A stretch of 64,000 nt of DNA from positions 468,562 to 532,561 of the forward strand of contig OY969413.1 of NCBI GenBank assembly GCA_963699165.1, read 5' to 3'. Shown piece by piece: positions 7,704-63,187 of the stretch. The notes below the pieces were generated by a model, which saw only the letters and a list, made by a program, of their open reading frames with translations, searched no databases and was not told the origin of the DNA. Numbering within the stretch: position 1 is the first letter of the stretch; each line of letters opens with the position of its first letter. Source of the DNA: Candidatus Kaiserbacteria bacterium. Lineage in GTDB: Bacteria; Patescibacteriota; Minisyncoccia; Phycocordibacterales; Phycocordibacteraceae. Made by a program: the position numbers and the translations under genes.

Positions 7704-7757
7704 TATCTGAAAGTATAACGCATAAAAAACGGGTATTCATGGGAAATGCATAAGTTC

Positions 7758-8815
7758 AGATACATTTGGCAGTCCTCATAACCGAGGATATATGCGCATC
7801 AGAAGCAATTTCAGGGGTACGAAGGGCTGGTTGAGCATGTGGGAAAGGACGATACGATTGCGGCATATGCGGAAACCAAAGGAAGTCGACAGACGGGTGA
7901 AGATATTGGGATTCTGGGACATGCACGGGACGGAGGCCGCATACGACGCCTTTGGCACCTCGGAGCGCACCTTGTATCGCTGGAAGGAGGAACTCAAAGC
8001 CCACGAGGGCCGCATTGATGCACTTGACCCGAAGAGCACTGCGCCGAAGGCGCGTCGAAGGAGGACTGTTCTGCCCGAGGTCGAGGATTTCATCATCCGC
8101 GAACGACAGGCGCATCCCCGGCTTGGGAAAGCAAAGCTTGCCGTTCTCCTGCGCGAAGAAGGGTACTCCGTGTCGGAGTCATACGTTGGGCGGGTCATTC
8201 TGGATTTGAAGAACCGCGGTCTGCTCCCGCAGCAGAGCCGGCTCTCGTTCCACGCACGTACGGGCAATCACACGGAAACACCGCAGAAACGCCGTACCAA
8301 GCTTCGCCGCACCGGCAAGCGCGGCATGGAGCTCGATACCGTCGTCCGCTTCATCGACGGCGTGAAGCGGTACGTCCTCACGGCAGTGGACGTGGAGCGG
8401 AAGTTCGCCTTTGCGGGCGCGTATACGAACCACTCGTCGAGAAGCGCGGACGACTTCCTTCGCCGAGTCATCGAGGTTTGCCCCTTCGATATCGACGAGT
8501 TGCAGACCGACAACGGGAGCGAGTTCGCCAAACACTTCGAGGATGCCTGTGCCGAACTCGGGCTCACGCACTTTCACACCCGCCCCCGCACTCCCAAGAT
8601 GAATGCCCACGTCGAACGATTCAATCGCACCGTCTCCGAGGACTTCATCATGCTGAATCGGGGCCTGCTGCGGGACGATATTCATTCCTTCAATCTGAAG
8701 CTTGTCGACTGGCTGATCTGGTACAACACCAAACGCCCGCACCAGTCGCTCGGCATGGTGTCCCCCTTGCGGTATATTGTGTGTACATTAACCGTCGGGG
8801 ACTGCCAAAAGTACT
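7758..8815 (+). mobile_element. IS481-family insertion sequence (approximate ends)
   Basis: Transposase ORF with rve/DDE core; terminal inverted repeats TTTGGCAGTCC (7765-7775) and GGACTGCCAAA (8799-8809). Confidence 0.45.
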
Positions 8816-8835
8816 GGACGCGTACAGGAAAGTGA
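7792..8835 (+). CDS. IS481-family DDE transposase (HTH plus integrase core)
   Basis: rve-core motifs TDNGSEF and WYNTKRPHQSLG; N-terminal HTH region. Confidence 0.85.
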   Translation: MRIRSNFRGTKGWLSMWERTIRLRHMRKPKEVDRRVKILGFWDMHGTEAAYDAFGTSERTLYRWKEELKAHEGRIDALDPKSTAPKARRRRTVLPEVEDFIIRERQAHPRLGKAKLAVLLREEGYSVSESYVGRVILDLKNRGLLPQQSRLSFHARTGNHTETPQKRRTKLRRTGKRGMELDTVVRFIDGVKRYVLTAVDVERKFAFAGAYTNHSSRSADDFLRRVIEVCPFDIDELQTDNGSEFAKHFEDACAELGLTHFHTRPRTPKMNAHVERFNRTVSEDFIMLNRGLLRDDIHSFNLKLVDWLIWYNTKRPHQSLGMVSPLRYIVCTLTVGDCQKYWTRTGK

Positions 8836-8876
8836 CGGTACCAAGGTGTTGGTTTATACTTACCGGACTCACTCGC

Positions 8877-9890
8877 ATGTCGTTCATCTCCTACTCCTTC
8901 CTCGTCTTTTTCCCAGTCGTAACCATTTTATATTTTTGGACGCCCCAGCGCCTGCGCTGGGCTTTGCTTCTTTTTGCGAGCTGTATTTTTTACGTGGCCT
9001 TCATACCCGCCTATATTTTCGTGCTTTTCGGCCTCATTGCGGTCGATTACACCGCAGGCCGCCTGCTTGGAAAAGCAACAGGTGCGTATCGGAAATGCAT
9101 CCTTCTCGCGAGCGTCATATCGACCTGCGCGGTGCTACTCGTATTCAAATATTTCAATTTCGCAAACGAAAACATTGCCGCGCTATCCTCGTTCCTTCAT
9201 TGGAACTATTCGATTGCCGCATTGTCGCTTGCATTGCCGCTCGGACTTTCCTTTCACACGTTCCAGAGCTTGAGTTACGTCATCGAGGTGTATCGGGGCA
9301 AATTCAAGCCCGAACGACACTTCGGCATCTACGCGCTCTATGTCATGTTTTATCCGCAACTCGTCGCGGGACCGATTGAACGTCCGCAACATCTTCTGCC
9401 GCAATTTTATGAAAACCATGTTTTTGACTACGAGCGCGTAAAAACCGGACTCATCCGCATGGCATGGGGATTTTTCAAAAAGATGGCGATAGCCGACAAT
9501 CTCGCGATCATTGTGAATCCGATTTTTGCTAATCCGTCGCAGTACGGCAGCATCTCGCTTATCATCGCGAGCATCTGCTTCACTCTCCAAATATATTTTG
9601 ATTTTTCAGGATATTGCGACATCGCGCTCGGTGCGGCACAGGTGATGGGATTTACGCTGATGGAAAACTTCAATCGGCCGTTCGCGGCAAAATCAATCGC
9701 GGAGTTTTGGCGCCGTTGGCACATTTCGCTCTCATCGTGGTTCCGCGACTATTTTTACTACCCGCTCGTGCTTTCGCAAAAGAAAGTCACTCCTGCGAAA
9801 ATTTACGCGACTACCCTTTTTACGTTTTTAGTAACGGGTTTTTGGCATGGCGCGAACTGGACCTTCGGCATTTTCGGACTTCTGCACGGT
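8877..9890 (+). pseudogene. MBOAT-family membrane O-acyltransferase (AlgI/DltB-like), 3' end replaced by IS3 insertion
   Basis: Multi-TM protein with MBOAT His motif region WRRWHISLSSWFRDYFYYPL and FWHGANW; reading frame runs into the IS left inverted repeat at 9891 and stops after LLHGARYPKRR... Confidence 0.7.
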
Positions 9891-10064
9891 GCAAGGTACC
9901 CCAAACGTCGGACACTCATTCTAAATACCAGCAGCTAATTTAGAATGTACCTATGGCAAAGAAAGCATACCGTATTGCTCCTGAGATTAAGGAGCAGATT
10001 ATCAACCGTATCAAAAACGATGGCATCAGTGTCGCTGAGGCAGCGAAAGAACACGGAGTCAGTA
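9891..10064 (+). mobile_element. solo duplicated left end of the IS3-family element (IRL plus first ~37 codons of orfA)
   Basis: 174 bp identical to 10065-10238, by direct comparison. Confidence 0.8.
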
Positions 10065-10127
10065 TGCAAGGTACCCCAAACGTCGGACACTCATTCTAAA
10101 TACCAGCAGCTAATTTAGAATGTACCT

Positions 10128-10388
10128 ATGGCAAAGAAAGCATACCGTATTGCTCCTGAGATTAAGGAGCAGATTATCAACCGTATCAAAAACGATGGCA
10201 TCAGTGTCGCTGAGGCAGCGAAAGAACACGGAGTCAGTACCGTCACTATCTATGCTTGGCTTGGCACCTCTGCAAAAGGAGTGAGTATCATTGAGCACAA
10301 CAGAGTGAAGAAGGAGAACGGTCTCCTTAAAGCACTCATCGGAGAATTGACGTTTAAACTCTCAAACGGAGAAAAAAGGGGCTCTTGA
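10128..10388 (+). CDS. IS3-family transposase OrfA (HTH)
   Basis: MAKKAYRIAPEIKEQIINRIKNDGISVAEAAKEHGVS helix-turn-helix, leucine-zipper-like C-terminus. Confidence 0.85.
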   Translation: MAKKAYRIAPEIKEQIINRIKNDGISVAEAAKEHGVSTVTIYAWLGTSAKGVSIIEHNRVKKENGLLKALIGELTFKLSNGEKRGS

Positions 10389-11167
10389 TGAGAGAAAACA
10401 AGAGTGCTCTTGCACGCGAGAGCGGTATTGCTCGCAGTACGCTGTACTACGAGCCGAAGCAGGCTCGGAGGGATTGGCACACAAAGCAACTCATCGAAGA
10501 AGCTCTGCGTAGCCATCCCGCCTATGGGCACAAACGGTTGGCACTCTACCTCAAAGTCAACAAAAAGCGCATTCTGCGTGTGATGAAATTGTTCGGTATC
10601 AAACCATATCGGAGGACCGCAAAGAAGCGATTTGTGCTAAAGACAAAAGACAGTATATTCCCGAACTTCTTGCTCCATCAAACTCCCGAGCAGGACGGTG
10701 ACATCTGGGCGAGTGACTTCACCTACCTCAAGTACCACGGGTACTGGGTATACGTCGCTACCATCCTTGACGTCTATTCCCGAGAGATTGTCGGTGTGTC
10801 AGTCCTCACCACCCACAGCACGCAACTCATCATGAATGCACTTCTCTCTGCGCTACATCACAAATCGCCACCTCGTGTCATCCATTCGGATCAAGGCAGC
10901 GAGTATGCCTCAAAGGATTATGCGATGCTCGTGGCAACGATCGGCATACAGCAATCTATGTCTCGTCCTGGATGTCCCTGGGAGAATGGCTACCAAGAGT
11001 CCTTCTACAAAGGGTTCAAGATTGACCTGGGTGATCCGAACCGATTCGACACGTTAGGTGAATTAGTGGCTGAGATCTACCTCACCATCCACTATCACAA
11101 TACCGCTCGCATTCACTCAGCACTGCGTATGGCGCCAAGAGAGTTTGTTGCTCTGAGCAGAGCATAG
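10385..11167 (+). CDS. IS3-family transposase OrfB (DDE integrase core)
   Basis: rve motifs WASDFTY, HSDQGSEY, and the family-typical C-terminus. Confidence 0.85.
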   Translation: MMRENKSALARESGIARSTLYYEPKQARRDWHTKQLIEEALRSHPAYGHKRLALYLKVNKKRILRVMKLFGIKPYRRTAKKRFVLKTKDSIFPNFLLHQTPEQDGDIWASDFTYLKYHGYWVYVATILDVYSREIVGVSVLTTHSTQLIMNALLSALHHKSPPRVIHSDQGSEYASKDYAMLVATIGIQQSMSRPGCPWENGYQESFYKGFKIDLGDPNRFDTLGELVAEIYLTIHYHNTARIHSALRMAPREFVALSRA

Positions 11168-11225
11168 TATCCTATACTTATAGAATGAGTGTACGAAGAA
11201 AGGGGTACCTTCCATCGGAGAGGTT

Positions 11226-11993
11226 GTGAAGGAAATTCTTTTACGTAGAATTGAAAATTTTCCAGAGATAGGCGCGGAGATACGAAATGCACCATTCCAT
11301 AGTGCGTTTCTAGAATGTTTTAATGACCGATTAGGTTCATTGAATATTGAGACTCCCTACCTCGTAGCTATCGCGAGCTGGCTTCATGGCCTCAACACTT
11401 CTCTCGGTACTGGATTTGAGAATATTTCACATATTCTATCTGGTGGATATAAACGGAAATTTACTGATGCTTACCACCTTACAGTAAAAAGAGGTCAAGC
11501 TAATCATGTTGAAGAAATTATTCGAGATTTGAAGGCGGGTGTACATACACCTAATCTAGAACGAGAAAACGGGCTTGTTTTAAATTTCGATGCAAACGAT
11601 GGAGAAATAGATTCTTTACCATTTACTGTGGACACTTATATTGAGAGAGGAAATGAAATCATTGCCATTGAACTGAAATCGGTTAGACCTAACTCGGGCG
11701 AAGGTCGTGGAGAGAAGCAGAAGATACTTTATGGCAAGGCGGCTTTGAAGTTACAGAATCCAGATAAAGATATTCGCTTCTTAGTAGGATTTCCTTTTGA
11801 CCCCACATCTCCAACCCCTATTGGTTATGACAAAGCAAGATTCTTTGATTACTTGATTGAATTCAAAAAATTCTTCGCTGAGGACGAAGTGCTTATTGCC
11901 TCAGAATTTTGGGATTTCTTGAGTGGTAGCGAAAATACTATGGAGGAGATTCTTGATGTTATTGCAGAAACTGTCGCTCAGGTTAGAGGTTAG
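11226..11993 (+). CDS. hypothetical protein, possible PD-(D/E)xK nuclease (restriction-endonuclease-like), AT-rich
   Basis: Candidate catalytic core FTVDTYIERGNEIIAIELKS; GTG start; low GC suggests foreign origin; no methyltransferase adjacent. Confidence 0.4.
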   Translation: MKEILLRRIENFPEIGAEIRNAPFHSAFLECFNDRLGSLNIETPYLVAIASWLHGLNTSLGTGFENISHILSGGYKRKFTDAYHLTVKRGQANHVEEIIRDLKAGVHTPNLERENGLVLNFDANDGEIDSLPFTVDTYIERGNEIIAIELKSVRPNSGEGRGEKQKILYGKAALKLQNPDKDIRFLVGFPFDPTSPTPIGYDKARFFDYLIEFKKFFAEDEVLIASEFWDFLSGSENTMEEILDVIAETVAQVRG

Positions 11994-12756: not shown

Positions 12757-12930
12757 AAAAATACCCGAAAGTTCGGTGTCCCTTCGCCCTATCTAGCTTT
12801 TCTAAAATCGTGCTGCGTAATAATGGCTACAAACAAGGCTCTCGGGTCTGTCCGATACAAAAGTCTTCGGGCGGTGGCATGGGGATCCGAACTGTCAGCA
12901 TAGTACCGATAAAAAGTACTGAGACATGGC
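12757..12930. repeat. direct-repeat copy 1 (about 90% identical to 23128-23300), ending with att-like core CATAGTACCGATAAAAAGTACT
   Basis: Direct alignment of the two regions; contains AGTAC-N9-GTACT inverted half-sites at 12902-12920. Confidence 0.7.
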
Positions 12931-15711: not shown

Positions 15712-15912
15712 GGGCGGTGTGTATTGAACGAAGTTCGAATGTATTTTGAATTGAATCCTGATGACCAATGATGCGCGCCTCGGACACGCTCGCGGACTCG
15801 CGTGTGCAAAAACCAAAAAATTTCCTTACATTTTTCCCGCGCCTCCTCCCCCCACCCCTCCGCCGCGAAGCGGAAAAAGAAATGGAAAGGAAATTTTTGG
15901 TTTTGCTTCGCC
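15712..15912. repeat. IR-A: 201-bp perfect inverted repeat (partner 17592-17792)
   Basis: Reverse complement of 17592-17792 is identical base for base; contains a polypyrimidine tract CCTCCTCCCCCCACCCCTCC. Confidence 0.9.
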
Positions 15913-16122
15913 GTTTCAGTCTCCGAAAAGAGCAATCTTATTTTAACATTTTTGTTTGCTCTTTTCTCCACCCTCACGGCGACCGAGGCGCTTCCTCTCC
16001 GCGTTTAGTGGTAGCTCTAGGGTTCGTGGCTTCGTTCGCTGGTCGTGGTAACTCATAAAGCGGATTGTGCATGGCACAAACAAATCTGTTTGTGCTTGCC
16101 CCGCCCGCCCTGTGCGCGCACA

Positions 16123-16171: not shown

Positions 16172-17275
16172 TTACTTGCGAAAAACACTTTTGATAGCAA
16201 CATCTTCTCCTTCCTTAGTTTTCATTTTGTGATTTTCTGGATTCGCAAAAATATCAATCATGCTTTCAATAAACTTCGTTTTTACTTCTTTGTGAATTTC
16301 AATCAATCGGCGGGCGTCGTCTTCGGTAAGATTAGGCATAAGTTCTTCGGCATCAATCCCAGCAATTTTTTTGCCAACATCTTCGGGCACGACGCCCCGC
16401 CTTTCATCAAGTGGTTGTTTTACCTGATATTGATATTTTTGCAAATCAGTTTTTTCACTAAGAAATTTTGAAAGCACAATACCTCTAAAAGAAAAATTAT
16501 TTACATCGCCTTCGCCGAGGACTTTCTCGGCTAAAGTTGCTTCTTCGGGCGATAATTTTCCTTTTACGGCTTCCGACAAAAAACCAACACCAGAAGCGGA
16601 GGCAACATATATACTTCCATTTTCTTGAAGAAAATTATCGCCTAAAATTTCTTTGGCGACTTCACGATTTATGTAATAGTACGCACTATTAGCGTCCAAG
16701 ACTTTCTCCGCGAAAACATCTCGTCCTTTTCCAGTTCCACCATGACCCTCTTTGTCGTGATCTAAAAGTTCAGAAAGTTTTTCCTCTGTAAGTTCCTTGC
16801 CGTCCTCGGAAATTATTTCGTGAAGTAATCTTCCTGTTCTTCCGTTTCCGTCAGAATATGGATGTATGGCTTGAAGTGCGTAGTAAGTTAAAAGCGCGCG
16901 GTCTTCGTTATCTGGTATTTGTTTGAGTGCATCAAAACTTTCTCTCATCAAGCCGTCTTTCTGCTCGGCCGCTGGTGGGAGATATGAAATATCTCCCATA
17001 ATGCCAAAAGAAACTTCAACACCACTTCCGTCTACCGCACGCTTCTTTATCGGTACTTCGCGCAAGATTCCATTTAAACGAGTGAGATAATTTGTATAGT
17101 CTTCGTAAGAAAGTTTTTGAAGCCACTCATCAAACTGCTCGTCAGATTTTCTAACATCCAAAAATTTTGTGCGGTCCAAAAACTCAAAAACTTTCTTACC
17201 AGTTTCAAGTTTTTCCTCCACGGGTTCTTGTTTTTCTTGACGAGGAGTAGGTTGTGGGAATGATTCCATGCTCAT
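16172..17275 (-). CDS. Fic-family protein (AMPylation-type FIDO domain)
   Basis: Fic motif HPYSDGNGRTGRLL. Confidence 0.85.
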   Translation of the reverse strand: MSMESFPQPTPRQEKQEPVEEKLETGKKVFEFLDRTKFLDVRKSDEQFDEWLQKLSYEDYTNYLTRLNGILREVPIKKRAVDGSGVEVSFGIMGDISYLPPAAEQKDGLMRESFDALKQIPDNEDRALLTYYALQAIHPYSDGNGRTGRLLHEIISEDGKELTEEKLSELLDHDKEGHGGTGKGRDVFAEKVLDANSAYYYINREVAKEILGDNFLQENGSIYVASASGVGFLSEAVKGKLSPEEATLAEKVLGEGDVNNFSFRGIVLSKFLSEKTDLQKYQYQVKQPLDERRGVVPEDVGKKIAGIDAEELMPNLTEDDARRLIEIHKEVKTKFIESMIDIFANPENHKMKTKEGEDVAIKSVFRK

Positions 17276-17513: not shown

Positions 17514-17591
17514 AGCTTGTATTCTAGCAGTTTGTTGTGTCCTATATCAATAATGTGATATATTACAATAGATGATGAATGATTTTATAAC

Positions 17592-17792
17592 GGCGAAGCA
17601 AAACCAAAAATTTCCTTTCCATTTCTTTTTCCGCTTCGCGGCGGAGGGGTGGGGGGAGGAGGCGCGGGAAAAATGTAAGGAAATTTTTTGGTTTTTGCAC
17701 ACGCGAGTCCGCGAGCGTGTCCGAGGCGCGCATCATTGGTCATCAGGATTCAATTCAAAATACATTCGAACTTCGTTCAATACACACCGCCA
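17592..17792. repeat. IR-A': inverted partner of 15712-15912
   Basis: Perfect reverse-complement identity. Confidence 0.9.
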
Positions 17793-17910
17793 AAATTCGG
17801 AATCAGAAGAAACGGACAAAGCGGGGTCGCGCCGAAGGCGCGACACTAATGCATTCCCCCCGCCGAATCCAGAATCCAAAAGGGTTTTCCACGCTCCGCG
17901 TGGCTCGTCG
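17793..17910. repeat. IR-B: 118-bp perfect inverted repeat (partner 19341-19458), directly abutting IR-A'
   Basis: Reverse complement identical to 19341-19458. Confidence 0.9.
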
Positions 17911-17927
17911 TTTGCCAATACAATTCT

Positions 17928-19583
17928 ATGAATAATCAAACCAAAAAGTTTTTCATATATACTCGCAAGTCTACGGACGACAAAGACAGACAAGTCCGCA
18001 GTATTTCTGACCAACTTTCAGAGTTAAAGGAGTTAGCGTTGAAAGAACAACTGGAAGTGGTAGATGTCTTTGTCGAAAAGCAGACCGCCAAAATACCAGG
18101 TCGCCCTGTGTTTAATGAAATGATAGAGCGTATGGAAAAAGGCGAAGCGTCTGGTATTTTGGCGTGGCATCCCGATAGACTTGCGAGAAACTCGGTAGAT
18201 GGAGGAAAAATCATCTACCTCGTTGATACTGGCGTAATCGTAGAGATGAAATTTCCAACTTTTTGGTTTGATCCGACACCGCAAGGGAAATTCATGCTCT
18301 CAATCGCTTTTTCGCAATCCAAGTATTATGTGGATAATTTAAGCGAGAACATTAAGCGCGGACATAGAAACAAAGTGAAGGAAGGAATATGGCCTCAAAT
18401 GTCTCCGATTGGATATGTGAACGAGAAAGGAAAAGGTATCGTGCCACATCCCGAGCTTGCTCCACTTGTCCGTAAGACATTTGAGGCATATTCAACTGGA
18501 AACTTCACTTTGCGGGAAGTCCGCGACAAATTTAATGGTCTTGGATTGAAGCGAAAAAGCGGTAGAGAGCTTGCGGTGTCGAATTATCAAAAACTTCTCA
18601 AAAATCCTATTTACACTGGTCTAATGAGGTATAACGGAGAGATTTTTGAGGGCAAGCACGAACCGATTATTTCAAAGAAACTTTTTGATACAGTACAAGA
18701 AGTGATGAGCCGAAAATCTAAACCGCATAGCAAAGGCTTGAAGCCATATATCTATCGCGGATTTTTCCGTTGTGGAGAGTGTGGTTGTTTCATTACCACC
18801 GAGCAACAAAAAGGTCATAACTATCTCCGCTGTACCAAACGGAAAAATCCTTGCTCACAGAAATATGTTCGCGAGGAGCTCATCACTTCTCAAATTCAAG
18901 AAGAAATCAAAAAAGTTTCTTTGCCTCTCGATTGGACGGAATGGATGATTGCCGAAAATGCAAAAGATCGGCAATCGGAAGTCCAGTCGAGTGAGATTTT
19001 TTCTCAAAAAATTCAAAATGAAATTTCTCTTTTGGATTCAAAAATAGAGAAGCTGATGAGTGCCTACCTCGAAAGTGCGTTGTCACTTGAAGAATATCGC
19101 GAAGCTAAAAACAAGTTGGTTAACCAAAATCAGCTTCTCAAAGAGAAATTAATAGCTTTTGAGAAAAAATCTCATAATCGGTTCGAACTTACCGAAAAGT
19201 TTTTGAAATACAATATGGAATTGGCAAACGACCGAACAAATGAGGAAAATACTCATTTGTTCAAAAAAGTCGGTTCGAACTTTCAAATTAAGGATCGAAC
19301 CGTACTTTTTGAGCCACGCGGAGCGTGGAAAACCCTTTTGGATTCTGGATTCGGCGGGGGGAATGCATTAGTGTCGCGCCTTCGGCGCGACCCCGCTTTG
19401 TCCGTTTCTTCTGATTCCGAATTTTGGCGGAGGCGAAGAGATACGAACCCGACGGGTCGCACCTTCGCCCTATGGCTTACATCCTCAGTATTTTATTTCT
19501 GCTGCTCGGTTCGAATCTCGGCGGGGGTTCCATGTCATGCCTCATGGTTAGGTGATAAGAGCTACTCGGGACGGTGGACGTAA
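17928..19583 (+). CDS. large serine recombinase (resolvase domain, recombinase domain, zinc ribbon)
   Basis: N-terminus YTRKSTDDKDRQVRSISDQ (catalytic Ser region), CGECGCF zinc ribbon, C-terminal coiled-coil; the frame continues into IR-B', so the true stop may be earlier. Confidence 0.85.
   Translation: MNNQTKKFFIYTRKSTDDKDRQVRSISDQLSELKELALKEQLEVVDVFVEKQTAKIPGRPVFNEMIERMEKGEASGILAWHPDRLARNSVDGGKIIYLVDTGVIVEMKFPTFWFDPTPQGKFMLSIAFSQSKYYVDNLSENIKRGHRNKVKEGIWPQMSPIGYVNEKGKGIVPHPELAPLVRKTFEAYSTGNFTLREVRDKFNGLGLKRKSGRELAVSNYQKLLKNPIYTGLMRYNGEIFEGKHEPIISKKLFDTVQEVMSRKSKPHSKGLKPYIYRGFFRCGECGCFITTEQQKGHNYLRCTKRKNPCSQKYVREELITSQIQEEIKKVSLPLDWTEWMIAENAKDRQSEVQSSEIFSQKIQNEISLLDSKIEKLMSAYLESALSLEEYREAKNKLVNQNQLLKEKLIAFEKKSHNRFELTEKFLKYNMELANDRTNEENTHLFKKVGSNFQIKDRTVLFEPRGAWKTLLDSGFGGGNALVSRLRRDPALSVSSDSEFWRRRRDTNPTGRTFALWLTSSVFYFCCSVRISAGVPCHASWLGDKSYSGRWT
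19341..19458. repeat. IR-B': inverted partner of 17793-17910, overlapping the 3' end of the recombinase ORF
   Basis: Perfect reverse-complement identity. Confidence 0.9.
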
Positions 19584-23127: not shown

Positions 23128-23362
23128 GCGGAAAAGTTCGGTGTCCCTTCGCCCTATCTAGATTTTCTAAAAACGTACTGTGTAATAACGGCCAAGAATA
23201 AAGCTCTCGGGTCTATCCGATACTAAAGTCTTCGGGCGGGGGCGCAGTCATTCGAACCGTCAACATAGTACTAAGCCCTCACACAGAAGGCGCAGAGATT
23301 CGAACTAAAAATACGTTGTAAAATATAGGTTTCAACATACTACCGATAAAAAGTACTACCTG
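23128..23362. repeat. direct-repeat copy 2 plus tRNA-3'-fragment debris, ending with att-like core copy 3 at 23334-23357, abutting the tRNA-Ser 3' end
   Basis: Alignment with 12757-12930; internal T-arm-like fragments GCGCAGAGATTCGAACT and CAGTCATTCGAACCGTC. Confidence 0.65.
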
Positions 23363-23449
23363 CGGAGGCGGAGAGATTCGAACTCTCGAGAGCCTTTCGA
23401 CCCTGCCGCCTTTCCAAGGCGGTGCACTAGACCACTATGCGACGCCTCC
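23363..23449 (-). tRNA. tRNA-Ser (anticodon GGA)
   Basis: Manual fold: acceptor GGAGGCG/CGCCTCC, anticodon loop TTGGAAA, long variable arm, T-loop TTCGAAT; CCA not encoded. Confidence 0.85.
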
Positions 23450-32862: not shown

Positions 32863-33267
32863 GGGGGGTGACCGGCTTTGACGGTCTGTACTTTGAAAGA
32901 CGTGCGACGCAGTGCACTCCAATCAACACTAAAAACTGTTGGAAAACAAACTTGCCAAGAACACTCTTGCAAGCGTGAAGTCGCCGTACTTCGGTATGCG
33001 TGATTTCGCGTTCGCGTACGCGGCAGCCTAACGGCTCCTCGCCTGCGCGACGTCTGCCCTCCCGGGTTTCTACAGCCGGAGGAGCGGGCGGAATTATCTG
33101 AAGAATCGATGTCCGGTCTCCCGTCCGGCGCATTTAAATAAGGGATCGGGCAGGAATGGTTTCGTCTGCGTTCCTCGCATCCTGCCTAAGACACTAACGC
33201 TGACTATGCGTCGTAGAAGCGCTTTCATAGCCGGATTCGGACGGGGGTTCGATTCTCCCCACCTCCA
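32863..33267 (+). ncRNA. ssrA: tmRNA (ssrA)
   Basis: 5' GGGGGUGACCGGCUUUGACGG; 3' tRNA-like GGACGGGGGTTCGATTCTCCCCACCTCCA; acceptor pairing GGGGGUG/CACCUCC with a G3:U70 Ala identity pair; internal tag ORF ending FAYAAA*. Confidence 0.8.
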
Positions 33268-33277
33268 CTCGATAAAC

Positions 33278-33319: not shown

Positions 33320-33790
33320 GAGATGGAACGAGACGCCTGCGCGTCTCGTGTGGAGAATCGAAAGGCGCAGCGATGTTTTGTCAGCAGACAAAACCGCGAG
33401 CCGGGGTCGAGCAAATTCGCGAGTGACGACGAGCGAATTATGCGTGACCGACTCTCCCCGCTTAGCGATTCGTGACTTCGACTCCCGTTTTTCATATAAA
33501 CCGCGAGCCGGGGTCGCGAAAATTTCGAGCGGCGGCGAGAAATTATTCGTGACCAATTCTCCCCGCCCCAATTTGTCCGGAGCATTTTACTTAGCGATTC
33601 GTGACTTCGACTCCCTGTCTGCACGCCTCACGTGGAGAATCGAATGGCGGAGCGATGTTTTGTCAGCAGACAAAACCGCGAGCCGGGGTCGAGCAAATTC
33701 GCGAGTGGCGACGAGCGAATTATGCGTGACCTGTTATAAGAAAAGTAGCAGGTTCCAACGAATGTTTAGGCATAAATCCGGCCGCTAACT
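33320..33790. repeat. hairpin-rich repeat family A (two ~105-nt units at 33349-33452 and 33641-33744, plus GTGAC...CTCCCC subrepeats)
   Basis: Units are ~98% identical; internal hairpins GTTTTGTC-AGCA-GACAAAAC and AATTCGC/GCGAATT; begins with the reverse complement of a tmRNA-3'-like TTCGATTCTCCAC. Confidence 0.6.
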
Positions 33791-34589: not shown

Positions 34590-34960
34590 GGAGGTGAGCA
34601 AGACACCTGCGTGTCTTGCGTGGGAGAATCGAATGCCGGAGCCATGTGCGAAGCACAGCGAGGCGGGGTCGAGAGCACTTAGCACTTTTGCGAATACTTG
34701 GAGCAAAATGCTTAGTGACTCGTGACCAACTCCCCACCTATATACAAACCGCAGTCCTTTAGGAGTCGCGCAAATTCGCGAGCGAACCCAGTAGGTCATT
34801 CTGCTGAATGAGACGAGCGAATTATGCGTGACCGACTCTCACCGCTTAGCGATTCGTGACTTCGACTCCCCTACTGAAATGTATTGGAGCAAAATGCTTA
34901 GTGACTCGTGACCAATTCTCCCCGCTTCAGCTCTTGGAGCAATCCGATTAGCGATTCTCT
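34590..34960. repeat. hairpin-rich repeat family A, second cluster
   Basis: Shares GAGAATCGAATGCCGGAGC, GACGAGCGAATTATGCGTGACCGACTCTC[A/C]CCGCTTAGCGATTCGTGACTTCGACTCCC and GCTTAGTGACTCGTGACCAA(T/C)TC motifs with 33320-33790. Confidence 0.55.
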
Positions 34961-57823: not shown

Positions 57824-57877
57824 CAATAGATGGCTTACTTTATAGATATTCGAACTGTTGCAAGTTTTGCAACAGCT

Positions 57878-57927
57878 CAACTCTCCCGCTTGCCGTGGAG
57901 GAGGAGGTCGAGGGCGTATTGCATCGA
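57878..57927. repeat. ABC-3'-end repeat copy 1 (minus strand encodes FSMQYALDLLLHGKRES*)
   Basis: Alignment with 61433-61496. Confidence 0.85.
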
Positions 57928-57932
57928 AAACA

Positions 57933-58622
57933 TTATTTCTTCTGAAGAACTTCCCATTCCAACTTCAATGCTGACATTCGGTCAAGCAAAATGGGATGAG
58001 AAATATATGGAAGCGCATAAGTATAAAATTCTTCAAACAACGGAATATGTTGTTCCTTTTCATACTCCAATGCCTTTTCAACCGCTTGATATTTATCGAG
58101 CTGTCTTCCGAAAGATGCGGCGGCATCGCCTGAAGATTCAAAGCGAAGCCAAAGTTTCATAATCTCCTCTCCGGCATCCCCCATTCCACTGCAAATTTGC
58201 GTCAATGCTTTCTTTTCATTTTCGAACTTGATTGCTTTCAGCATTTTTCTTTCAGCCTCGTCGATTGTTGTGATGACTTCATCTCCGTGAATTGCCTCCG
58301 GCCAATCGTGCACTTCAAGCATGTCGAACAATCCATCTTTCTCCTCATCGGTGAGATTCCCGAACGAATTCGCCAAAACCCTTAACGCAACTATGTGATC
58401 TTGAACGGTTTCTGGATTTTCAACACCTCTACGTACCCATACGGTCCTAGGCAATTCTCCCAAGGCCTTCCAGACTTCAGGTGCGAGTTGTGCAAATTTA
58501 AGATTAGGCGCTTTCTCACTTTCGCCCGCCGTCTTGGGGTTAGGAAATGATTCATTCATTTTACTATTGTAGCTTAGCGGAGAATGAGATTCGACCGGGT
58601 GCTCAACTCTCCCTCTTGCCAT
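57933..58622 (-). CDS. HD-domain phosphohydrolase (YfbR-like)
   Basis: H...HD pattern: VQDHIVAL ... EVHDWPEAIHGD; alternative start MNESF at 58560. Confidence 0.65.
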   Translation of the reverse strand: MARGRVEHPVESHSPLSYNSKMNESFPNPKTAGESEKAPNLKFAQLAPEVWKALGELPRTVWVRRGVENPETVQDHIVALRVLANSFGNLTDEEKDGLFDMLEVHDWPEAIHGDEVITTIDEAERKMLKAIKFENEKKALTQICSGMGDAGEEIMKLWLRFESSGDAAASFGRQLDKYQAVEKALEYEKEQHIPLFEEFYTYALPYISHPILLDRMSALKLEWEVLQKK

Positions 58623-58660
58623 GAAGGAGGAGGTCGAGGGCGTGCTGCATCGAGCCCGCG
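58605..58660. repeat. ABC-3'-end repeat copy 2 (FAGSMQHALDLLLHGKRES*)
   Basis: Alignment. Confidence 0.85.
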
Positions 58661-58673
58661 AAACACGGCAGAG

Positions 58674-59132
58674 TTATTTCTCTACGATTCCCAATCGTGA
58701 TATGCCATACTCTTCAAATTCGTCCTCCCACTTAATAATGCAATCTTGCAGTTTCATAAACCGCTCTTCCTGCGTCATTTTTTTCCATTCTTCTTCGCTA
58801 TATCTATTGAAGAAATCCCTATCGCCAAGACGATCTTCAAGTTCATCCCAAAAAGCTTCATCGTCATATTCCTTAATAAGCCGGCTGATTTCAGTATCTT
58901 GTCCTGAAGGGTCGTATTCCAATTGGTGTTCAAATTGCTTGGGAAGGCCAAACAGCGGCGCAAGCGAAAAAACGTAATCCGCAATTTCATTGTATTTATC
59001 CAGATGCGGGTCGTCTTCCCTTCCTGTCCTATGACAATTTGCCATCCAATTCCCGAGGTAAACCAGTTGCGCGAGCGCAATATATTGATCTTTCGTAAAT
59101 TCCAGCGGCACTTTGGGCGTATTTGTCTCCAT
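58674..59132 (-). CDS. hypothetical acidic protein immediately downstream of the Doc/RhuM gene
   Basis: 152 aa, D/E-rich; 4-nt gap to the upstream gene. Confidence 0.4.
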   Translation of the reverse strand: METNTPKVPLEFTKDQYIALAQLVYLGNWMANCHRTGREDDPHLDKYNEIADYVFSLAPLFGLPKQFEHQLEYDPSGQDTEISRLIKEYDDEAFWDELEDRLGDRDFFNRYSEEEWKKMTQEERFMKLQDCIIKWEDEFEEYGISRLGIVEK

Positions 59133-59135
59133 AAT

Positions 59136-60083
59136 TTATTTCAGGAGTTGGGTAATGAGCGCGACCATTTGCTCTTTGTTTTTCGGGTCGCTCTCGGCCG
59201 TCAAAAGAGTAAGCGCAGTGAGCGCGCTCGGATTGATATTTCGGGCCGTTTTTACTTTCGCCTTTCGCAAGAACCAGATAAACGCAAAAGCACCCGAGCG
59301 CTTGTTGCCGTCGGTAAACGGATGGTTCTTGACCATGAAATACAGAAGATGTGCGGCCTTTTCTTCGATGCTCGCGTACACCGGCTTCCCGCCAAACGTC
59401 TGCATGACGTTACCGACAATTCCTTCCACATTCCCGGCGGCTCGTTCTTGCGCAAAAATTTCCGTCGCTTCTCCTTTCTTTAAAAGTTCCGAGCGAAGAT
59501 TGGCGATTGCCTCGGTAAGTTCGACGCCGGTGAGCTTAATTGCTTTCTTGGTAATTCCGACCGGCGTGAGCGTACCGCGGTCGTAGGCATCGAGCGAAAT
59601 CCATGTTCCCGAAAACTCTTTTACCAATTCGAGTATCGCTTTCGGATCGAGAACGACGTGTTCGGGCAAAAGCGCCTGAATGTCGCCGACCGACTTCATA
59701 AAGGCATCGTAGTTTTTGCCGATTTGCTTGCGATTGATGGTGTACCCCTTCGTGATGTGCTCGCGAAGCGTCTTGGTCGCCCATTGGCGGAATTCGATGG
59801 CAACTTTCGAATTTGTCCTGTATCCGACGCTTAAAACAACATCCAATGAATACATGGCCGTCGGCTTGAAGGAAGTAATGTGCATTTTTTGCACATTACT
59901 CTTTTCATCAATTTCCTTGTCTGTGAAGATCTTTCTGATGTGTTTTGTGACCACCGAACGTTCAATTCCAAAAACGTCTGCAATCTGGGCTTGTGTCGCC
60001 CAAATGCTCTCGTGTTCGAAATCGCCACGCAGTTCGATTGCGCCATTCTTCGCCTGATATATCACCACCTTATTTTTCGCCAT
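59136..60083 (-). CDS. Fic/Doc-family protein with an RhuM-like N-terminal domain
   Basis: N-terminus AKNKVVIYQAKNGAIELRGDFEHESIWATQAQIADVFGIERSVVTKHI (RhuM-like); Doc motif HPFTDGNKRSGAFA. Confidence 0.75.
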   Translation of the reverse strand: MAKNKVVIYQAKNGAIELRGDFEHESIWATQAQIADVFGIERSVVTKHIRKIFTDKEIDEKSNVQKMHITSFKPTAMYSLDVVLSVGYRTNSKVAIEFRQWATKTLREHITKGYTINRKQIGKNYDAFMKSVGDIQALLPEHVVLDPKAILELVKEFSGTWISLDAYDRGTLTPVGITKKAIKLTGVELTEAIANLRSELLKKGEATEIFAQERAAGNVEGIVGNVMQTFGGKPVYASIEEKAAHLLYFMVKNHPFTDGNKRSGAFAFIWFLRKAKVKTARNINPSALTALTLLTAESDPKNKEQMVALITQLLK

Positions 60084-60109
60084 ATACCGGCTATTGTATC
60101 ACTGCGGTT

Positions 60110-60162
60110 CTAACTCTCCCTTTTGCCGTGGAGGAGGAGGTCGAGGGCGTGCTGCACGAGCA
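60110..60162. repeat. ABC-3'-end repeat copy 3 (...ECSVQHALDLLLHGKRES*)
   Basis: Alignment. Confidence 0.85.
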
Positions 60163-60209
60163 CTCGGATGTGACATTGTCTTTTTTATCGTAATTAGTCC
60201 CACTTAGCT

Positions 60210-60746
60210 CTACTTTAAATTCCAAGCATCTTTTCCCGTTTCTAGAATCTTCCGTTCTTTTTCTAACAGCGGGTCATGAACTCGCTCTCTGTCACTTTTC
60301 TCGATAACAGTCCACATCTTGCCCGGCTTTTTTTCTCCACCATCAAGTTTTGGCTTCCTGTAACCTCTATTTAGGTTAATCTGTGCAGCTTTCTCAGCTG
60401 TTTTAATTGGAAGAATATAGCACTGATATTTTGATGGCGATTGAACTGCGACAAAAGCGACATACTGTGCTGTGTAAAATGAATCCTTTCTGTTGAAAAC
60501 GGGCTCTCGTCCACTGATAGTTTCCGAATCGGAATGCCCATACTGAATCCACCATCTGGCACCTATTTTATTGGTCGCGCCTTTCACTTGTATTTGCCAA
60601 GTTTTTCCATTCTTTGCGGCGAGTATATCTGAATTCGCACTCATACCGTCTTTGTTAAGATCCGTTGTGCGGTACCCGCGCGACTCGAGTTCGTTCATGA
60701 CTATTCTCTCGGCAATCTTCCCTATGCTTATTTTATTGAGAGACAT
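60210..60746 (-). CDS. PD-(D/E)xK nuclease, Hjc/Mrr-cat-like fold (restriction-endonuclease-like)
   Basis: IAERIVMNELESRGYRTTD...DILAAKNGKTWQIQVKG pattern. Confidence 0.5.
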   Translation of the reverse strand: MSLNKISIGKIAERIVMNELESRGYRTTDLNKDGMSANSDILAAKNGKTWQIQVKGATNKIGARWWIQYGHSDSETISGREPVFNRKDSFYTAQYVAFVAVQSPSKYQCYILPIKTAEKAAQINLNRGYRKPKLDGGEKKPGKMWTVIEKSDRERVHDPLLEKERKILETGKDAWNLK

Positions 60747-60802
60747 AGCGACTAGATTAACACTGATTGGAATTTAGGTGGAGAGGGTTTTACCACACTT
60801 TG

Positions 60803-60868
60803 TTAACTCTCCCTCTTGCCGTGGAGGAGGAGGTCGAGGGCGTGCTGCATCGAGCCCGCGGAGGTGAT
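60803..60868. repeat. ABC-3'-end repeat copy 4 (in frame after the kinase stop: ENISRLNHGITSAGSMQHALDLLLHGKRES*)
   Basis: Alignment; frame check. Confidence 0.85.
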
Positions 60869-60895
60869 TCCGTGATTCAAGCGAGAAATGTTCTC

Positions 60896-61405
60896 TTAGG
60901 ACAAACGTTCAAGATAGGCATCAATTTCTTTATGTGAGCGCAAAATGAGTACTTTATTTTTGTGTTCATTAATAAATCGACGGAGTTTCGACGCCTTGGT
61001 AAAGGTTCGCTTAATAATTTCCCCGAAGAATAGTACGTCGTCCCAAAAACTCGTTTCTTTATGGCGTTCTCGCGGATGCAACATTCTTTTCCCGTGGCTT
61101 ACTAGCCGTCTCCAAAGTGGGATATCGAGAAAAATAATCTGATCTGCCTGTGCGGCTATAAGATCTTGTATATGCAGATATGTCCCGTCTGAAACCCAAG
61201 ACTCTGCTTTAAGCGCCTCTGTCGCTTTATCTCTCACTCTCGCCCGCACTTGTTGGATAGTCGGCGCCGAACCACCGCTGATGTGTCCGCCACTCTCAAA
61301 CCAAAAACGGTCGAGATGGATGTGCGGTATAGAAAGTTTTTTTGATATCGCTTCAGCAAGCGTCGACTTCCCCGCCGCCGGTAGTCCGACTATATCTATG
61401 CGCAT
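60896..61405 (-). CDS. P-loop NTPase (adenylate-kinase-like / AAA_18 topology-modulation-like kinase)
   Basis: Walker A GLPAAGKST near the N-terminus; 169 aa. Confidence 0.55.
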   Translation of the reverse strand: MRIDIVGLPAAGKSTLAEAISKKLSIPHIHLDRFWFESGGHISGGSAPTIQQVRARVRDKATEALKAESWVSDGTYLHIQDLIAAQADQIIFLDIPLWRRLVSHGKRMLHPRERHKETSFWDDVLFFGEIIKRTFTKASKLRRFINEHKNKVLILRSHKEIDAYLERLS

Positions 61406-61429
61406 GGAAATAAGTATACCGCTTCTACC

Positions 61430-63187
61430 CTAACTCTCCCGCTTGCCATGAAGGAGGAGGTCGAGGGCGTGTTGCATCGAGCCCGCGGAGGTGATTTCGC
61501 CCGAGTTTACGAAGTAGATTTCGTCCGCGTCGCTGATGGTGTTTAGGCGGTGCGCGATAACTACTTTCGTCGTGGTGGCCGGAAGCTTATTTAAAATGTC
61601 TTCAAGCAATTTCTCCGTGACGGTATCGATGTTGGCGGTGGCTTCGTCCAAAATGAGAAGCTCGGGACTTCGAAGCACGGCGCGGATAAATGCGATGAGC
61701 TGTTTTTGCCCCAAGCTTATGGTCTCGCCACCCGACGTGATTTCGGTGTCGAGCCCGCCTTCAAAGCGCTCCAAAAGATTTGCGAGGCCTTCGTCTTTCA
61801 AAATCGCGGCCAACTCTTCGCTTGTGCGATTGAGGTATGCGGCATTGCCGTACACAATGTTGTCGCGCACGGTTCCGGTAAAGAGGAACGGCTCTTGGAG
61901 GAGATAGCCGATTTTTTGCGCGCGCTCGGCCGACTCGTATGCGCGGATGTCTTTACCTTGAAAGAAGACACTGCCTTTGGTCGGGTCGTAAAGCCGCGCC
62001 ATGAGCGAAGCAGTTGTAGTCTTGCCGCCGCCGGTCGGACCAACAAGCGCATAGGTCTTCCCTTTTTCAAGTTTCAAATTGATGTTTTTCAAGATGTCGG
62101 TGCCGTCCGGATAATGGAAAGAAACATCTTTGAATTCGAGCACGAGCGGTGAGTCGGTTTGCTTTGAAGGCACGATGGGCATGTCGGACTCGAGATTCAG
62201 GATATCGGTGATGCGCTGAAGCCCGGCGAGTGCGAGCTGAACGCTCGACCATACGGAAGCAAATTGGCGGAGCGGGTTGTAGAAATTGCTCGTGTAGATA
62301 AGGAAGCTAATGAGAAGTCCGACCGTAAAAATGCCGCTCGAAATGAGATAGATACCGTAAGCAAGCACGATGAGCTGTCCTAAATCGTAGGAGAGATCAA
62401 ACATCGGGCCGAACAGATTGTTCGCGACGCCCGCGCCGATGGAAGCGCGATAGTTTGCCGTATTGCTCTCGTTGAATTTTTCGCGGAAGTAGTCGAGGCG
62501 ATTGAAAGCAATCATCGCTTTGAAGTTTTTGAGGGATTCTTGGATTTCCGCGCTCATGCCGCCCAAGGACTGGAGGCTTTTGAGGTTGCGCGCCTGCACC
62601 CACGGGGAGATGACGCGCACGATGAGGGTGACCATGAGCGCGGGAAGAAGTGCGGCAATCCCGAGCCGCCAGTTGAGCACGATGAGGAAGATGCCGGTGC
62701 CGGTCAGTGTAAAGAGACCGCCGATAAAGCGCGTGAGGGATTCCGCAAACAGCTGGTTGAGCTTCTGCGTGTCGTTGTTGATGCGCGAAATCAGGTCGCC
62801 CGATTTATTTTGATTGAAGAAAACAATCGGCAGCTCCTGCAGTTTATTGAAAATCGAATTGCGCAGTTTGAAAAGAATGCGGATACCGATGCCGCCCATC
62901 GTAAGCGTCTGCACATAGCTTCCGATTCCGCCCACGATGTACACGGCAAGAAGCACACATGATGCAACAAGCACGCCGTGGAAATCTTTTGTTGCTATGA
63001 AATGGTCGATGGTGTAGCCGATGATGAACGGCGCCGCAAGCGAGCTCGCGGACGAAACCAAAATCGCGGCGAGCGACACGAATAGATTGCGTCCTTCGCC
63101 CGCGGTGAGCGCCCAAAGCTTTCGAAGCCCTTGCCCCAAGGACCCCTTCTCACTCTCCGTTTCGGACATATTAAGCTTGTAGTTCAT
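61430..63187 (-). CDS. ABC exporter, fused permease-ATPase (half-transporter)
   Basis: 6 TM, then NBD with GPTGGGKTT, LSGGQKQ, ILDEATA; the C-terminal ~20 codons form repeat copy 5; ORF reported from an upstream in-frame start. Confidence 0.85.
   Translation of the reverse strand: MNYKLNMSETESEKGSLGQGLRKLWALTAGEGRNLFVSLAAILVSSASSLAAPFIIGYTIDHFIATKDFHGVLVASCVLLAVYIVGGIGSYVQTLTMGGIGIRILFKLRNSIFNKLQELPIVFFNQNKSGDLISRINNDTQKLNQLFAESLTRFIGGLFTLTGTGIFLIVLNWRLGIAALLPALMVTLIVRVISPWVQARNLKSLQSLGGMSAEIQESLKNFKAMIAFNRLDYFREKFNESNTANYRASIGAGVANNLFGPMFDLSYDLGQLIVLAYGIYLISSGIFTVGLLISFLIYTSNFYNPLRQFASVWSSVQLALAGLQRITDILNLESDMPIVPSKQTDSPLVLEFKDVSFHYPDGTDILKNINLKLEKGKTYALVGPTGGGKTTTASLMARLYDPTKGSVFFQGKDIRAYESAERAQKIGYLLQEPFLFTGTVRDNIVYGNAAYLNRTSEELAAILKDEGLANLLERFEGGLDTEITSGGETISLGQKQLIAFIRAVLRSPELLILDEATANIDTVTEKLLEDILNKLPATTTKVVIAHRLNTISDADEIYFVNSGEITSAGSMQHALDLLLHGKRES
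61433..61496. repeat. ABC-3'-end repeat copy 5 (master copy; native 3' end of the ABC gene: ...SGEITSAGSMQHALDLLLHGKRES*)
   Basis: Alignment. Confidence 0.85.

Follow-up and report, generated by a model that had tools for sequence, protein, structure and literature searches.

A tandemly duplicated left end in an IS3-family element of Candidatus Kaiserbacteria: a probable transposition scar between two gene remnants

Introduction

Insertion sequences (ISs) of the IS3 family transpose by a copy-out-paste-in mechanism, in which the right and left inverted repeats (IRR and IRL) are brought together in an abutted IRR-IRL junction carried by a circle or by a tandem dimer. Here we describe a member of this family in a stretch of 64,000 nt from Candidatus Kaiserbacteria (GCA_963699165.1, OY969413.1, positions 468,562-532,561, forward strand), the whole of which is called the window below. 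The left end of the element is present twice in tandem, and the element lies between the remains of two genes, one for an MBOAT protein and the other for a TdeIII-family restriction endonuclease (RE). The locus had been singled out in an earlier reading of the same DNA made without database searches (the sequence-only reading).

The closest described systems are other IS3-family elements, IS30 and nested ISs. Among IS3-family elements, IS2, IS3, IS150 and IS911 form tandem dimers; an IR-IR junction can also arise between distant, directly oriented copies, and intramolecular reactions of such junctions yield deletions that start at one IR edge (PMC9333248). The IS30 network, which comprises site-specific dimerization of distant copies, dimer dissolution and junction-driven deletions, provides a precedent for both of the steps that we propose (PMC9333248). 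IS30 differs in belonging to another family, in its 2-bp spacing and in having hot-spot and IR targeting of its own, whereas the target used in the window is an apparently unremarkable internal site.

Nested or self-inserted ISs and adjacent deletions in reduced genomes are a further parallel. There too an IS terminus abuts internal sequence of a second copy, genes are truncated on both sides, and the genes lost are non-essential ones for surface polysaccharides and restriction-modification. The difference is that in the window only a 175-bp stump of the recipient is left, in direct tandem, so that any nested state has already been resolved. A search of the literature for IS3 elements found no described "tandem left-end duplication", and one for the accessions of the runs and assemblies had no result either.

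With IS911, IS2, IS3 and IS150 the window element shares orfA (helix-turn-helix, HTH) and orfB (DDE/rve) in 0 and -1 frames with an A-run at their overlap, imperfect inverted repeats of about 34 bp that end in TG...CA, and the presence of several near-identical copies in one genome. The form of the scar likewise fits intramolecular attack by an IRR-IRL junction, with a deletion that starts from the IR tip. The element differs from these relatives in its length (1150 bp, at the short end of the family), in the GAA-AAA-AGG phase of the A-run, and in belonging to a clade that is found almost only in Patescibacteria; its dimer or circle forms are inferred, not observed.

A duplicated left end at the tip of the element

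From left to right the locus consists of MBOAT codons 1-338, IS positions 1-175, the full 1150-bp IS and RE codons 11-269. We consider it likely that the joint between the two IS segments is real, that it was made by transposase acting on a copy of its own element, and that the interval once separating the two flanking genes was lost through IS action. The features of the locus, all on the plus strand, are as follows.

7744..8835, plus strand: IS481-like element (Pfam, NCBIfam, contig break points)
8877..9889, plus strand: 5' part of an MBOAT gene that retains codons 1-338 of about 487, a pseudogene (Pfam MBOAT; homologue alignment)
9890..10064, plus strand: extra partial IS left end, IS positions 1-175, with IRL and orfA codons 1-37 (100% identity to 10065-10239 and to the left ends of the related contigs L001 and L002)
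9890..9923, plus strand: outer (first) copy of IRL (exact pattern match; inverted-repeat pair with 11181-11217)
9953..10099, plus strand: chimeric open reading frame (ORF) of 48 aa (ORF list; partial Pfam HTH_Tnp_1)
10065..11214, plus strand: complete IS3-family insertion sequence, 1150 bp (99.9% identity, one mismatch, to the full copies in L001 and L002)
10065..10098, plus strand: inner (second) copy of IRL, its TG tip abutting IS position 175 of the partial copy (sequence, repeat scan, pattern match)
10128..10388, plus strand: orfA, 86 aa, HTH (Pfam HTH_Tnp_1)
10372..10378, plus strand: A6G run in the overlap of orfA and orfB (sequence; conserved in the relative L007)
10388..11167, plus strand: orfB, DDE/rve transposase of 259 aa, frame -1 with respect to orfA (Pfam rve; NCBIfam transpos_IS3)
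11181..11214, plus strand: IRR, terminating ...GGTACCTTCCA (complementarity to both IRLs; end of L001)
11215..11993, plus strand: 3' fragment of a TdeIII-family type II RE gene, codons 11-269 (Pfam RE_TdeIII; homologue alignment)

The duplication is a perfect head-to-tail repeat of 9890-10064 and 10065-10239, on which a repeat scan, Tandem Repeats Finder (period 175, 2.0 copies, 100% match, score 700) and self-BLAST agree. The sequence-only reading had found the first 174 bp of the IS doubled, at 9891-10064 and 10065-10238; the duplication stands, with a true unit of 175 bp, each outer edge having been placed one base short. The 34-nt IRL occurs exactly twice in the window and not once in 100 shuffles.

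The significance of the repeat lies in where it begins. The tips of the IS could be set without alignment, from contigs that stop at them: the Logan contig L002 starts with TGCAAGG and L001 (GCA_049279115.1) ends with CCTTCCA, which together define a unit element of 1150 bp bounded by TG...CA. Each of the two is 99.9% identical to 10065-11214. The second copy of the repeat begins on the very first base, the TG tip, of the element defined in this independent way. The two outer junctions, of the stump with MBOAT on the left and of the complete copy with the RE gene on the right, are true IS-gene junctions. The novel joint, 10064/10065, connects IS position 175 to IS position 1 and reads GGAGTCAGTA followed directly by TGCAAGGTACC. 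It is devoid of microhomology: the sequence ending at 10064 (...CAGTA) does not resemble that ending at 9889 (...CACGG), and the same is true of the sequences that start at 9890 and 10240. A boundary at the IS tip in combination with a lack of microhomology favors transposase chemistry over slippage.

The duplication is not the normal architecture of the IS, a possibility that is ruled out by the single left end found in L001 and L002, in L007 (75% identical) and in some 38 more distant copies. It is therefore specific to this locus. Since a perfect direct repeat of 175 bp is recombinationally unstable, the event was probably recent. Both the direct repeat and the spare IRL could feed more rearrangement or a collapse to a single end.

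Translation across the joint gives a chimeric ORF in which OrfA residues 1-37 are followed by 11 residues encoded by the second IRL. Only profile positions 8-36 of the 75 in Pfam HTH_Tnp_1 are covered. Judging from the sequence pattern, the ORF breaks off immediately ahead of the recognition helix predicted for the HTH (...EHGVS/TVTIYAWL), and DNA binding by its product is unlikely. The idea that a truncated OrfA might serve as a functional repressor is unsupported for this reason, the placement of the helix being itself a prediction from the pattern. A promoter and terminator scan of 8700-11400 gave nothing relevant above the expectation from shuffles. The internal target was also searched, over IS positions 165-185, for IR-like sequence; a 5-nt GTACC match, which is at chance level, was all that appeared, and evidence of IR targeting was rejected.

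A complete member of the IS3 family

All testable features of the IS3 family are present in the 1150-bp element, except for a visible target-site duplication. OrfA matches Pfam HTH_Tnp_1 with 30.2 bits (cut-off 24.1), and an identical protein in NCBI is titled "transposase [Minisyncoccia bacterium]". OrfB carries a full rve/DDE domain (Pfam rve, 90.8 bits) and matches the NCBIfam model NF033516, transpos_IS3, with 207 bits (cut-off 160). The IRL, TGCAAGGTACCCC..., and the IRR, ...GGGGTACCTTCCA, are imperfect repeats, 81-83% complementary over 35-37 nt and with TG...CA ends, and this holds for both copies of the IRL.

The frame of orfB (10385/10388-11167) is offset by -1 from that of orfA, and the -1 frame is open from 10355 across the overlap and into orfB. 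The A6G run within the overlap is likely to be a -1 recoding site. It is phased GAA-AAA-AGG, unlike the canonical A-AAA-AAG heptamer, and the motif is kept in L007 at 75% DNA identity. With both ORFs, the putative recoding site and both inverted repeats intact, the element is probably mobile, and a 99.9% identical copy is present in another context.

The immediate flanks of the locus, CGG and TCG, come from two different genes, and no target-site duplication was found there. Because the locus is rearranged and the feature is rarely visible in the clade, its lack is uninformative for family membership: identical 3-nt flanks were found in two of the 35 related copies whose tips could be recognized. 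Among the related copies (L010-L069), either there is no regular target duplication in this clade or the copies are heavily reshuffled. In several of them (L026, L044, L057) the inverted-repeat homology extends 2-8 nt past the TG/CA tips.

Related loci number 276, almost all in metagenome-assembled genomes (MAGs) of Patescibacteria, the best of them, from a Paceibacterota MAG, having 79% protein identity. A degenerate pattern for both inverted repeats had no match in genome contigs; in metagenome contigs it returned one related element, L007. The Logan contig L002 (run SRR27973122) ends at IS position 908, for which no cause is visible; this hints at a further variant or truncated copy in that sample.

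The genes on either side

The ORF that starts at 8877 matches Pfam PF03062 with 92.1 bits (cut-off 27) over profile positions 84-288 of 337, and the FWHGANW and WHISLS... motifs are kept within its 338 N-terminal residues. Its closest full-length relatives are 487 aa long and are 79-86% identical to it over residues 1-338 only. In a tBLASTn search of the window with two of these homologues, residues 1-338 were matched, ending at 9889/9890, and the last 149 residues were found nowhere in the 64 kb. These results bear out the sequence-only reading, in which the MBOAT gene was intact from its ATG past FWHGANW, was then cut, and had no C-terminal part beyond the IS. The junction with the left inverted repeat, put there at 9891, holds as well and moves by 1 bp, as the IS begins at 9890.

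Comparison of the locus with its relatives, which that reading had suggested, points the same way. In the relatives the 487-aa MBOAT gene is followed on its 3' side by genes for a partner protein (about 328 aa, in which a GDSL signal is faintly recognizable), a short-chain dehydrogenase, a MaoC dehydratase, acyl carrier protein (ACP) and ACP synthase. None of these genes was found in the window, which keeps MBOAT residues 1-338 and no syntenic neighbors. The MBOAT frame runs on for 16 codons into the IS to a stop at 9938, and is annotated as a protein of 353 aa (P0001) on the source contig of 993,452 bp.

As to its kind, the protein shares the MBOAT domain and both motifs with the O-acyltransferases of the AlgI/DltB/PatA type, which work with an SGNH/AlgJ-like partner. 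The window gene differs in that its final 149 residues are missing and no part of the partner cluster accompanies it. The score against the DltB equivalog TIGR04091 (151 bits) is far under the cut-off of 375, so the protein is not DltB proper. Although the motif with the catalytic His is kept, the stump is taken to be a pseudogene because the C-terminal membrane helices and the partner are gone.

On the other side of the IS, the sequence-only reading had noted an unrelated AT-rich gene. It is indeed unrelated and lies in DNA of 41% guanine-plus-cytosine (GC) content; what can be added is that it encodes a TdeIII RE, that it is itself short of 10 codons, and that its methyltransferase is probably lost. 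The protein matches Pfam RE_TdeIII (PF09520) with 164 bits (cut-off 27.2) from profile position 12 onward. Its homologues are uniformly 269 aa long and are 80-92% identical to it across the alignment (95% for the best BLASTP match). The window copy starts at residue 11 (IGEVVKE...), directly after the CA tip of the IS, and the native start is thus missing along with the first 10 codons; the earliest in-frame start is a GTG at 11226.

In the closest relative (L008) a DNA methyltransferase gene lies 4 nt upstream of the RE gene, and its full-length homologues are N4/N6-type enzymes of 524 aa. No trace of this cognate methyltransferase was found in the window, and among the best 120 matches to it (79-94% identity) none was on the 993-kb source contig. 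As a similar search did return the MBOAT stump from that contig, the result suggests to us that the methylase gene, like the 5' end of the RE gene, is probably gone and not moved. Without its native start and with no methylase nearby, the RE stump is most likely inactive. Restriction-modification systems of the TdeIII family are very widespread in Patescibacteria, where they are 80-95% conserved; the window copy is an orphaned remnant and presumably dead. We infer that both of the genes that flank the IS are dead, MBOAT and RE having been reduced to stumps.

The junction between IRR and the RE gene is found outside the source assembly. It recurs with 100% identity in Logan assemblies of two separate runs, SRR27973122 and ERR10755936, whose contigs L003 and L004 both start 30 nt (k-1, k being the word length of the assembly) inside the IS.

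How the joint may have arisen

The edge of the duplication at the TG tip of the IRL is most likely the signature of a transposase-catalyzed strand transfer in which an IRL tip entered a second copy of the same IS between positions 175 and 176 of the latter. As the most economical route we envisage two steps. In the first, two directly oriented copies of the IS would come to abut as a tandem dimer. They may have been separate insertions, one in the MBOAT gene and the other in the RE gene, or sisters derived from a single IS. The interval lost would extend from the 3' end of the MBOAT gene through the methyltransferase gene to the 5' end of the RE gene, and it could have been lost when the dimer formed from two insertions, by adjacent deletion from one insertion, or by homologous recombination between two copies. 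In the second step, the highly reactive IRR-IRL junction would attack the left copy intramolecularly at 175/176. Positions 176-1150 of the left copy would leave as a circle and be lost, and its first 175 bp would become joined to the intact right copy.

The same product could be reached by another route. A circle copy would insert at 175/176 of a copy already in place, after which RecA-type recombination, acting on the direct repeats, would remove the rest. The right junction of such a nested IS would read GGTACCTTCCA and then CCGTCACTATC within 0-5 nt. What the locus retains is no IRR-IRL junction and a deletion-like boundary that starts exactly at the IRL tip, at 10065.

The sequence-only reading had offered two descriptions of the duplication. 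The first, a tandem IS dimer that has undergone an internal deletion, ranks among the two best routes and matches the published deletions at junction edges, to which should be added that nested insertion with recombination yields the product equally well. An aborted transposition intermediate describes the locus poorly, since what is found is a stable double-stranded product. By whichever route, the scar is of a known kind and agrees with the predictions of copy-out-paste-in chemistry.

Joints between an IS end and an IS interior are not confined to the window. In a related IS from a Candidatus Falkowbacteria MAG (L033; CG1_02_37_21, MNUT01000003.1, 2591-3816), an 88-nt perfect inverted copy of the element's own right end abuts the IRL tip, which gives the element perfect terminal inverted repeats of 88-90 nt. 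It is one such case among about 38 related copies with recognizable ends, and it indicates that joints of this general type recur in the clade. One could go further and suppose that the IS3 clade of Patescibacteria is unusually prone to self-integration and leaves tip-anchored fragments behind, as in the window, in L033 and in a second broken OrfA on the source contig (P0363). We regard this as a long shot. If true, self-integration together with the scarcity of target duplications would point to a variant integration chemistry or to a self-limiting, "suicide" behavior that helps gene loss in minimal genomes.

Is the joint real, and was it made by transposase?

The points that weigh against our reading concern mainly the assembly. 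The joint at 10064/10065 is attested by the source assembly alone, the chimeric ORF that spans it being annotated (P0361) on the 993-kb source contig only, and L002, from run SRR27973122, passes IS position 175/176 without a branch. The latter is weak evidence, as the joint may be absent from that run, present at low coverage, or lost in graph cleaning. Moreover, the product does not reveal in which order or how many events took place, nor whether the dimer or the nested-insertion route was followed. Exact-protein look-ups with the MBOAT stump, the 48-aa junction ORF, the RE, OrfB, the IS481 transposase and P0363 gave no match. In a control, proteins truncated by a contig end proved to be missing from the protein collection, and the absence of records for a Logan MBOAT fragment or for other junction ORFs is therefore uninformative.

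A junction ORF known from one contig and the lack of a branch in L002 are also what an assembly artifact would leave, whether two contigs overlapping by 175 bp were concatenated or a nested IS (IS 1-175, full IS, IS 173-1150) was collapsed, and a repeat that is 100% identical, with its edge at a repeat boundary, is where assemblers err. We nevertheless judge an artifact unlikely, chiefly from what the source contig manages to cross. It carries two variants of OrfB, with Arg (the window) or His (L001) at residue 41, and, outside the window, the broken OrfA P0363, which matches the intact OrfA up to and including codon 78 and continues as VPTPILQTTS*. The contig hence spans at least 2-3 IS copies that are at least 99.9% identical over 1150 bp, in addition to the multicopy IS481-like element, which almost certainly required reads longer than the IS. 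Such reads would resolve a 175-bp duplication or a nested IS, and would make a mis-join or a collapse unlikely. The same strain is present in GCA_049279115.1, whose contig L090 matches at 99.97% identity over 7.5 kb and whose proteins carry the label "Minisyncoccia bacterium"; that assembly and those of Logan, which are built from short reads, break at both types of IS. In addition, 175 is not k-1 for any odd k, and the comparable joint of an end fragment to the IRL in L033 comes from an unrelated assembly.

If the joint is accepted, it need not follow that transposase made it. Short tandem duplications arise spontaneously by replication slippage or unequal crossing-over, and a simple head-to-tail repeat is what they produce. 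It would then be by chance that the boundary fell exactly on the first base of the IS, a coincidence of about 1 in 1000 over the element, and at a joint without microhomology; we consider this very improbable. A different proposal leaves the joint aside and addresses the flanks: they might have been brought together by inversion or translocation between two IS copies, in which case the 3' end of the MBOAT gene, the methyltransferase gene and the 5' end of the RE gene would survive elsewhere. The genome does have more IS copies, one of them broken (P0363), and flanks look swapped in a related complete genome of 995 kb (CP060229.1, Candidatus Nomurabacteria HK-STAS-PATE-25), where the left flank of one copy (L020) is similar to what the right flank of another (L021) gives in reverse complement, which suggests inversion between IS copies. 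Yet neither the MBOAT C-terminus nor the methyltransferase was found in the window, and the methyltransferase query, over its best 120 matches, had none on the 993,452-bp contig from which the MBOAT stump was recovered. Exchange of flanks is in our view improbable, and a joint made by transposase, with loss of the interval, is the reading that we retain.

Other features of the window

Upstream of the MBOAT stump lies an IS481-like element with one ORF for a DDE transposase of 347 aa (7792-8835; Pfam rve, rve_3 and HTH_32). Its best NCBIfam match is transpos_IS481, at 182.9 bits, under the cut-off of 224. Imperfect inverted repeats of about 21 nt are found at about 7754-7775 and 8799-8819. Two contigs from two other assemblies, L091 (k=31) and L090, end 30 and 126 nt inside the element, which places its left boundary at about 7744/7745 and indicates that it is multicopy in this strain. 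The transposase ORF passes the recognizable right inverted repeat before its stop at 8835, and the right tip is not precisely defined. An IS481-family element had been proposed at 7758-8815: an IS481-like element is present, with its left end farther out and with a family score below the cut-off. The further suggestion that 7.7-12 kb is an insertion hotspot was an over-reading. What these 3.5 kb contain, two ISs and two gene stumps, is a decayed region, and nothing in the results points to a target preference.

Several other repeats were noted in the window. A perfect inverted repeat of 203 nt (15713-15915 and 17589-17791) flanks a Fic-domain gene at 16172-17275 on the minus strand. Adjoining it is a perfect inverted repeat of 120 nt (17787-17906 and 19311-19430) that encloses most of a gene for a large serine recombinase at 17928-19583. 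The segment 15713-19583, with a low GC content of 42%, might represent either a mobile element or a module that the recombinase inverts.

A direct repeat of 139 nt with 85% identity is found at 12768-12906 and 23133-23271, the second copy being just upstream of a tRNA-Ser(GGA) gene at 23362-23449. The gene for transfer-messenger RNA (tmRNA), at 32864-33268, is followed by a cluster of direct repeats of 59-113 nt in the region up to 34923, among them the pairs 33337-33449 and 33619-33731, and 33428-33486 and 34812-34870. The latter cluster could consist of att-like remnants of elements that had integrated at the tmRNA gene. Finally, at 57875-61499, there are five copies of a repeat of 50-69 nt with 90-96% identity, about 0.6-1.5 kb apart in a stretch of low GC, which may be repeated gene starts or intergenic elements.

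Conclusions

The element described here is a new member of the IS3 family with a scar of a known type, and would not surprise a specialist. As the structure fits known copy-out-paste-in chemistry, it raises no new mechanistic question. It is of some consequence for annotation: the two pseudogenes and the chimeric 48-aa ORF are not to be called genes. For the biology of the organism, it means that an apparently active IS3-family element resides in a genome of about 1 Mb of the Minisyncoccia (Candidate Phyla Radiation (CPR)/Patescibacteria). The locus would be a concrete case of IS-mediated loss of a gene for surface-polysaccharide acylation together with a restriction-modification system, and as such it is of modest interest for the decay of reduced genomes.

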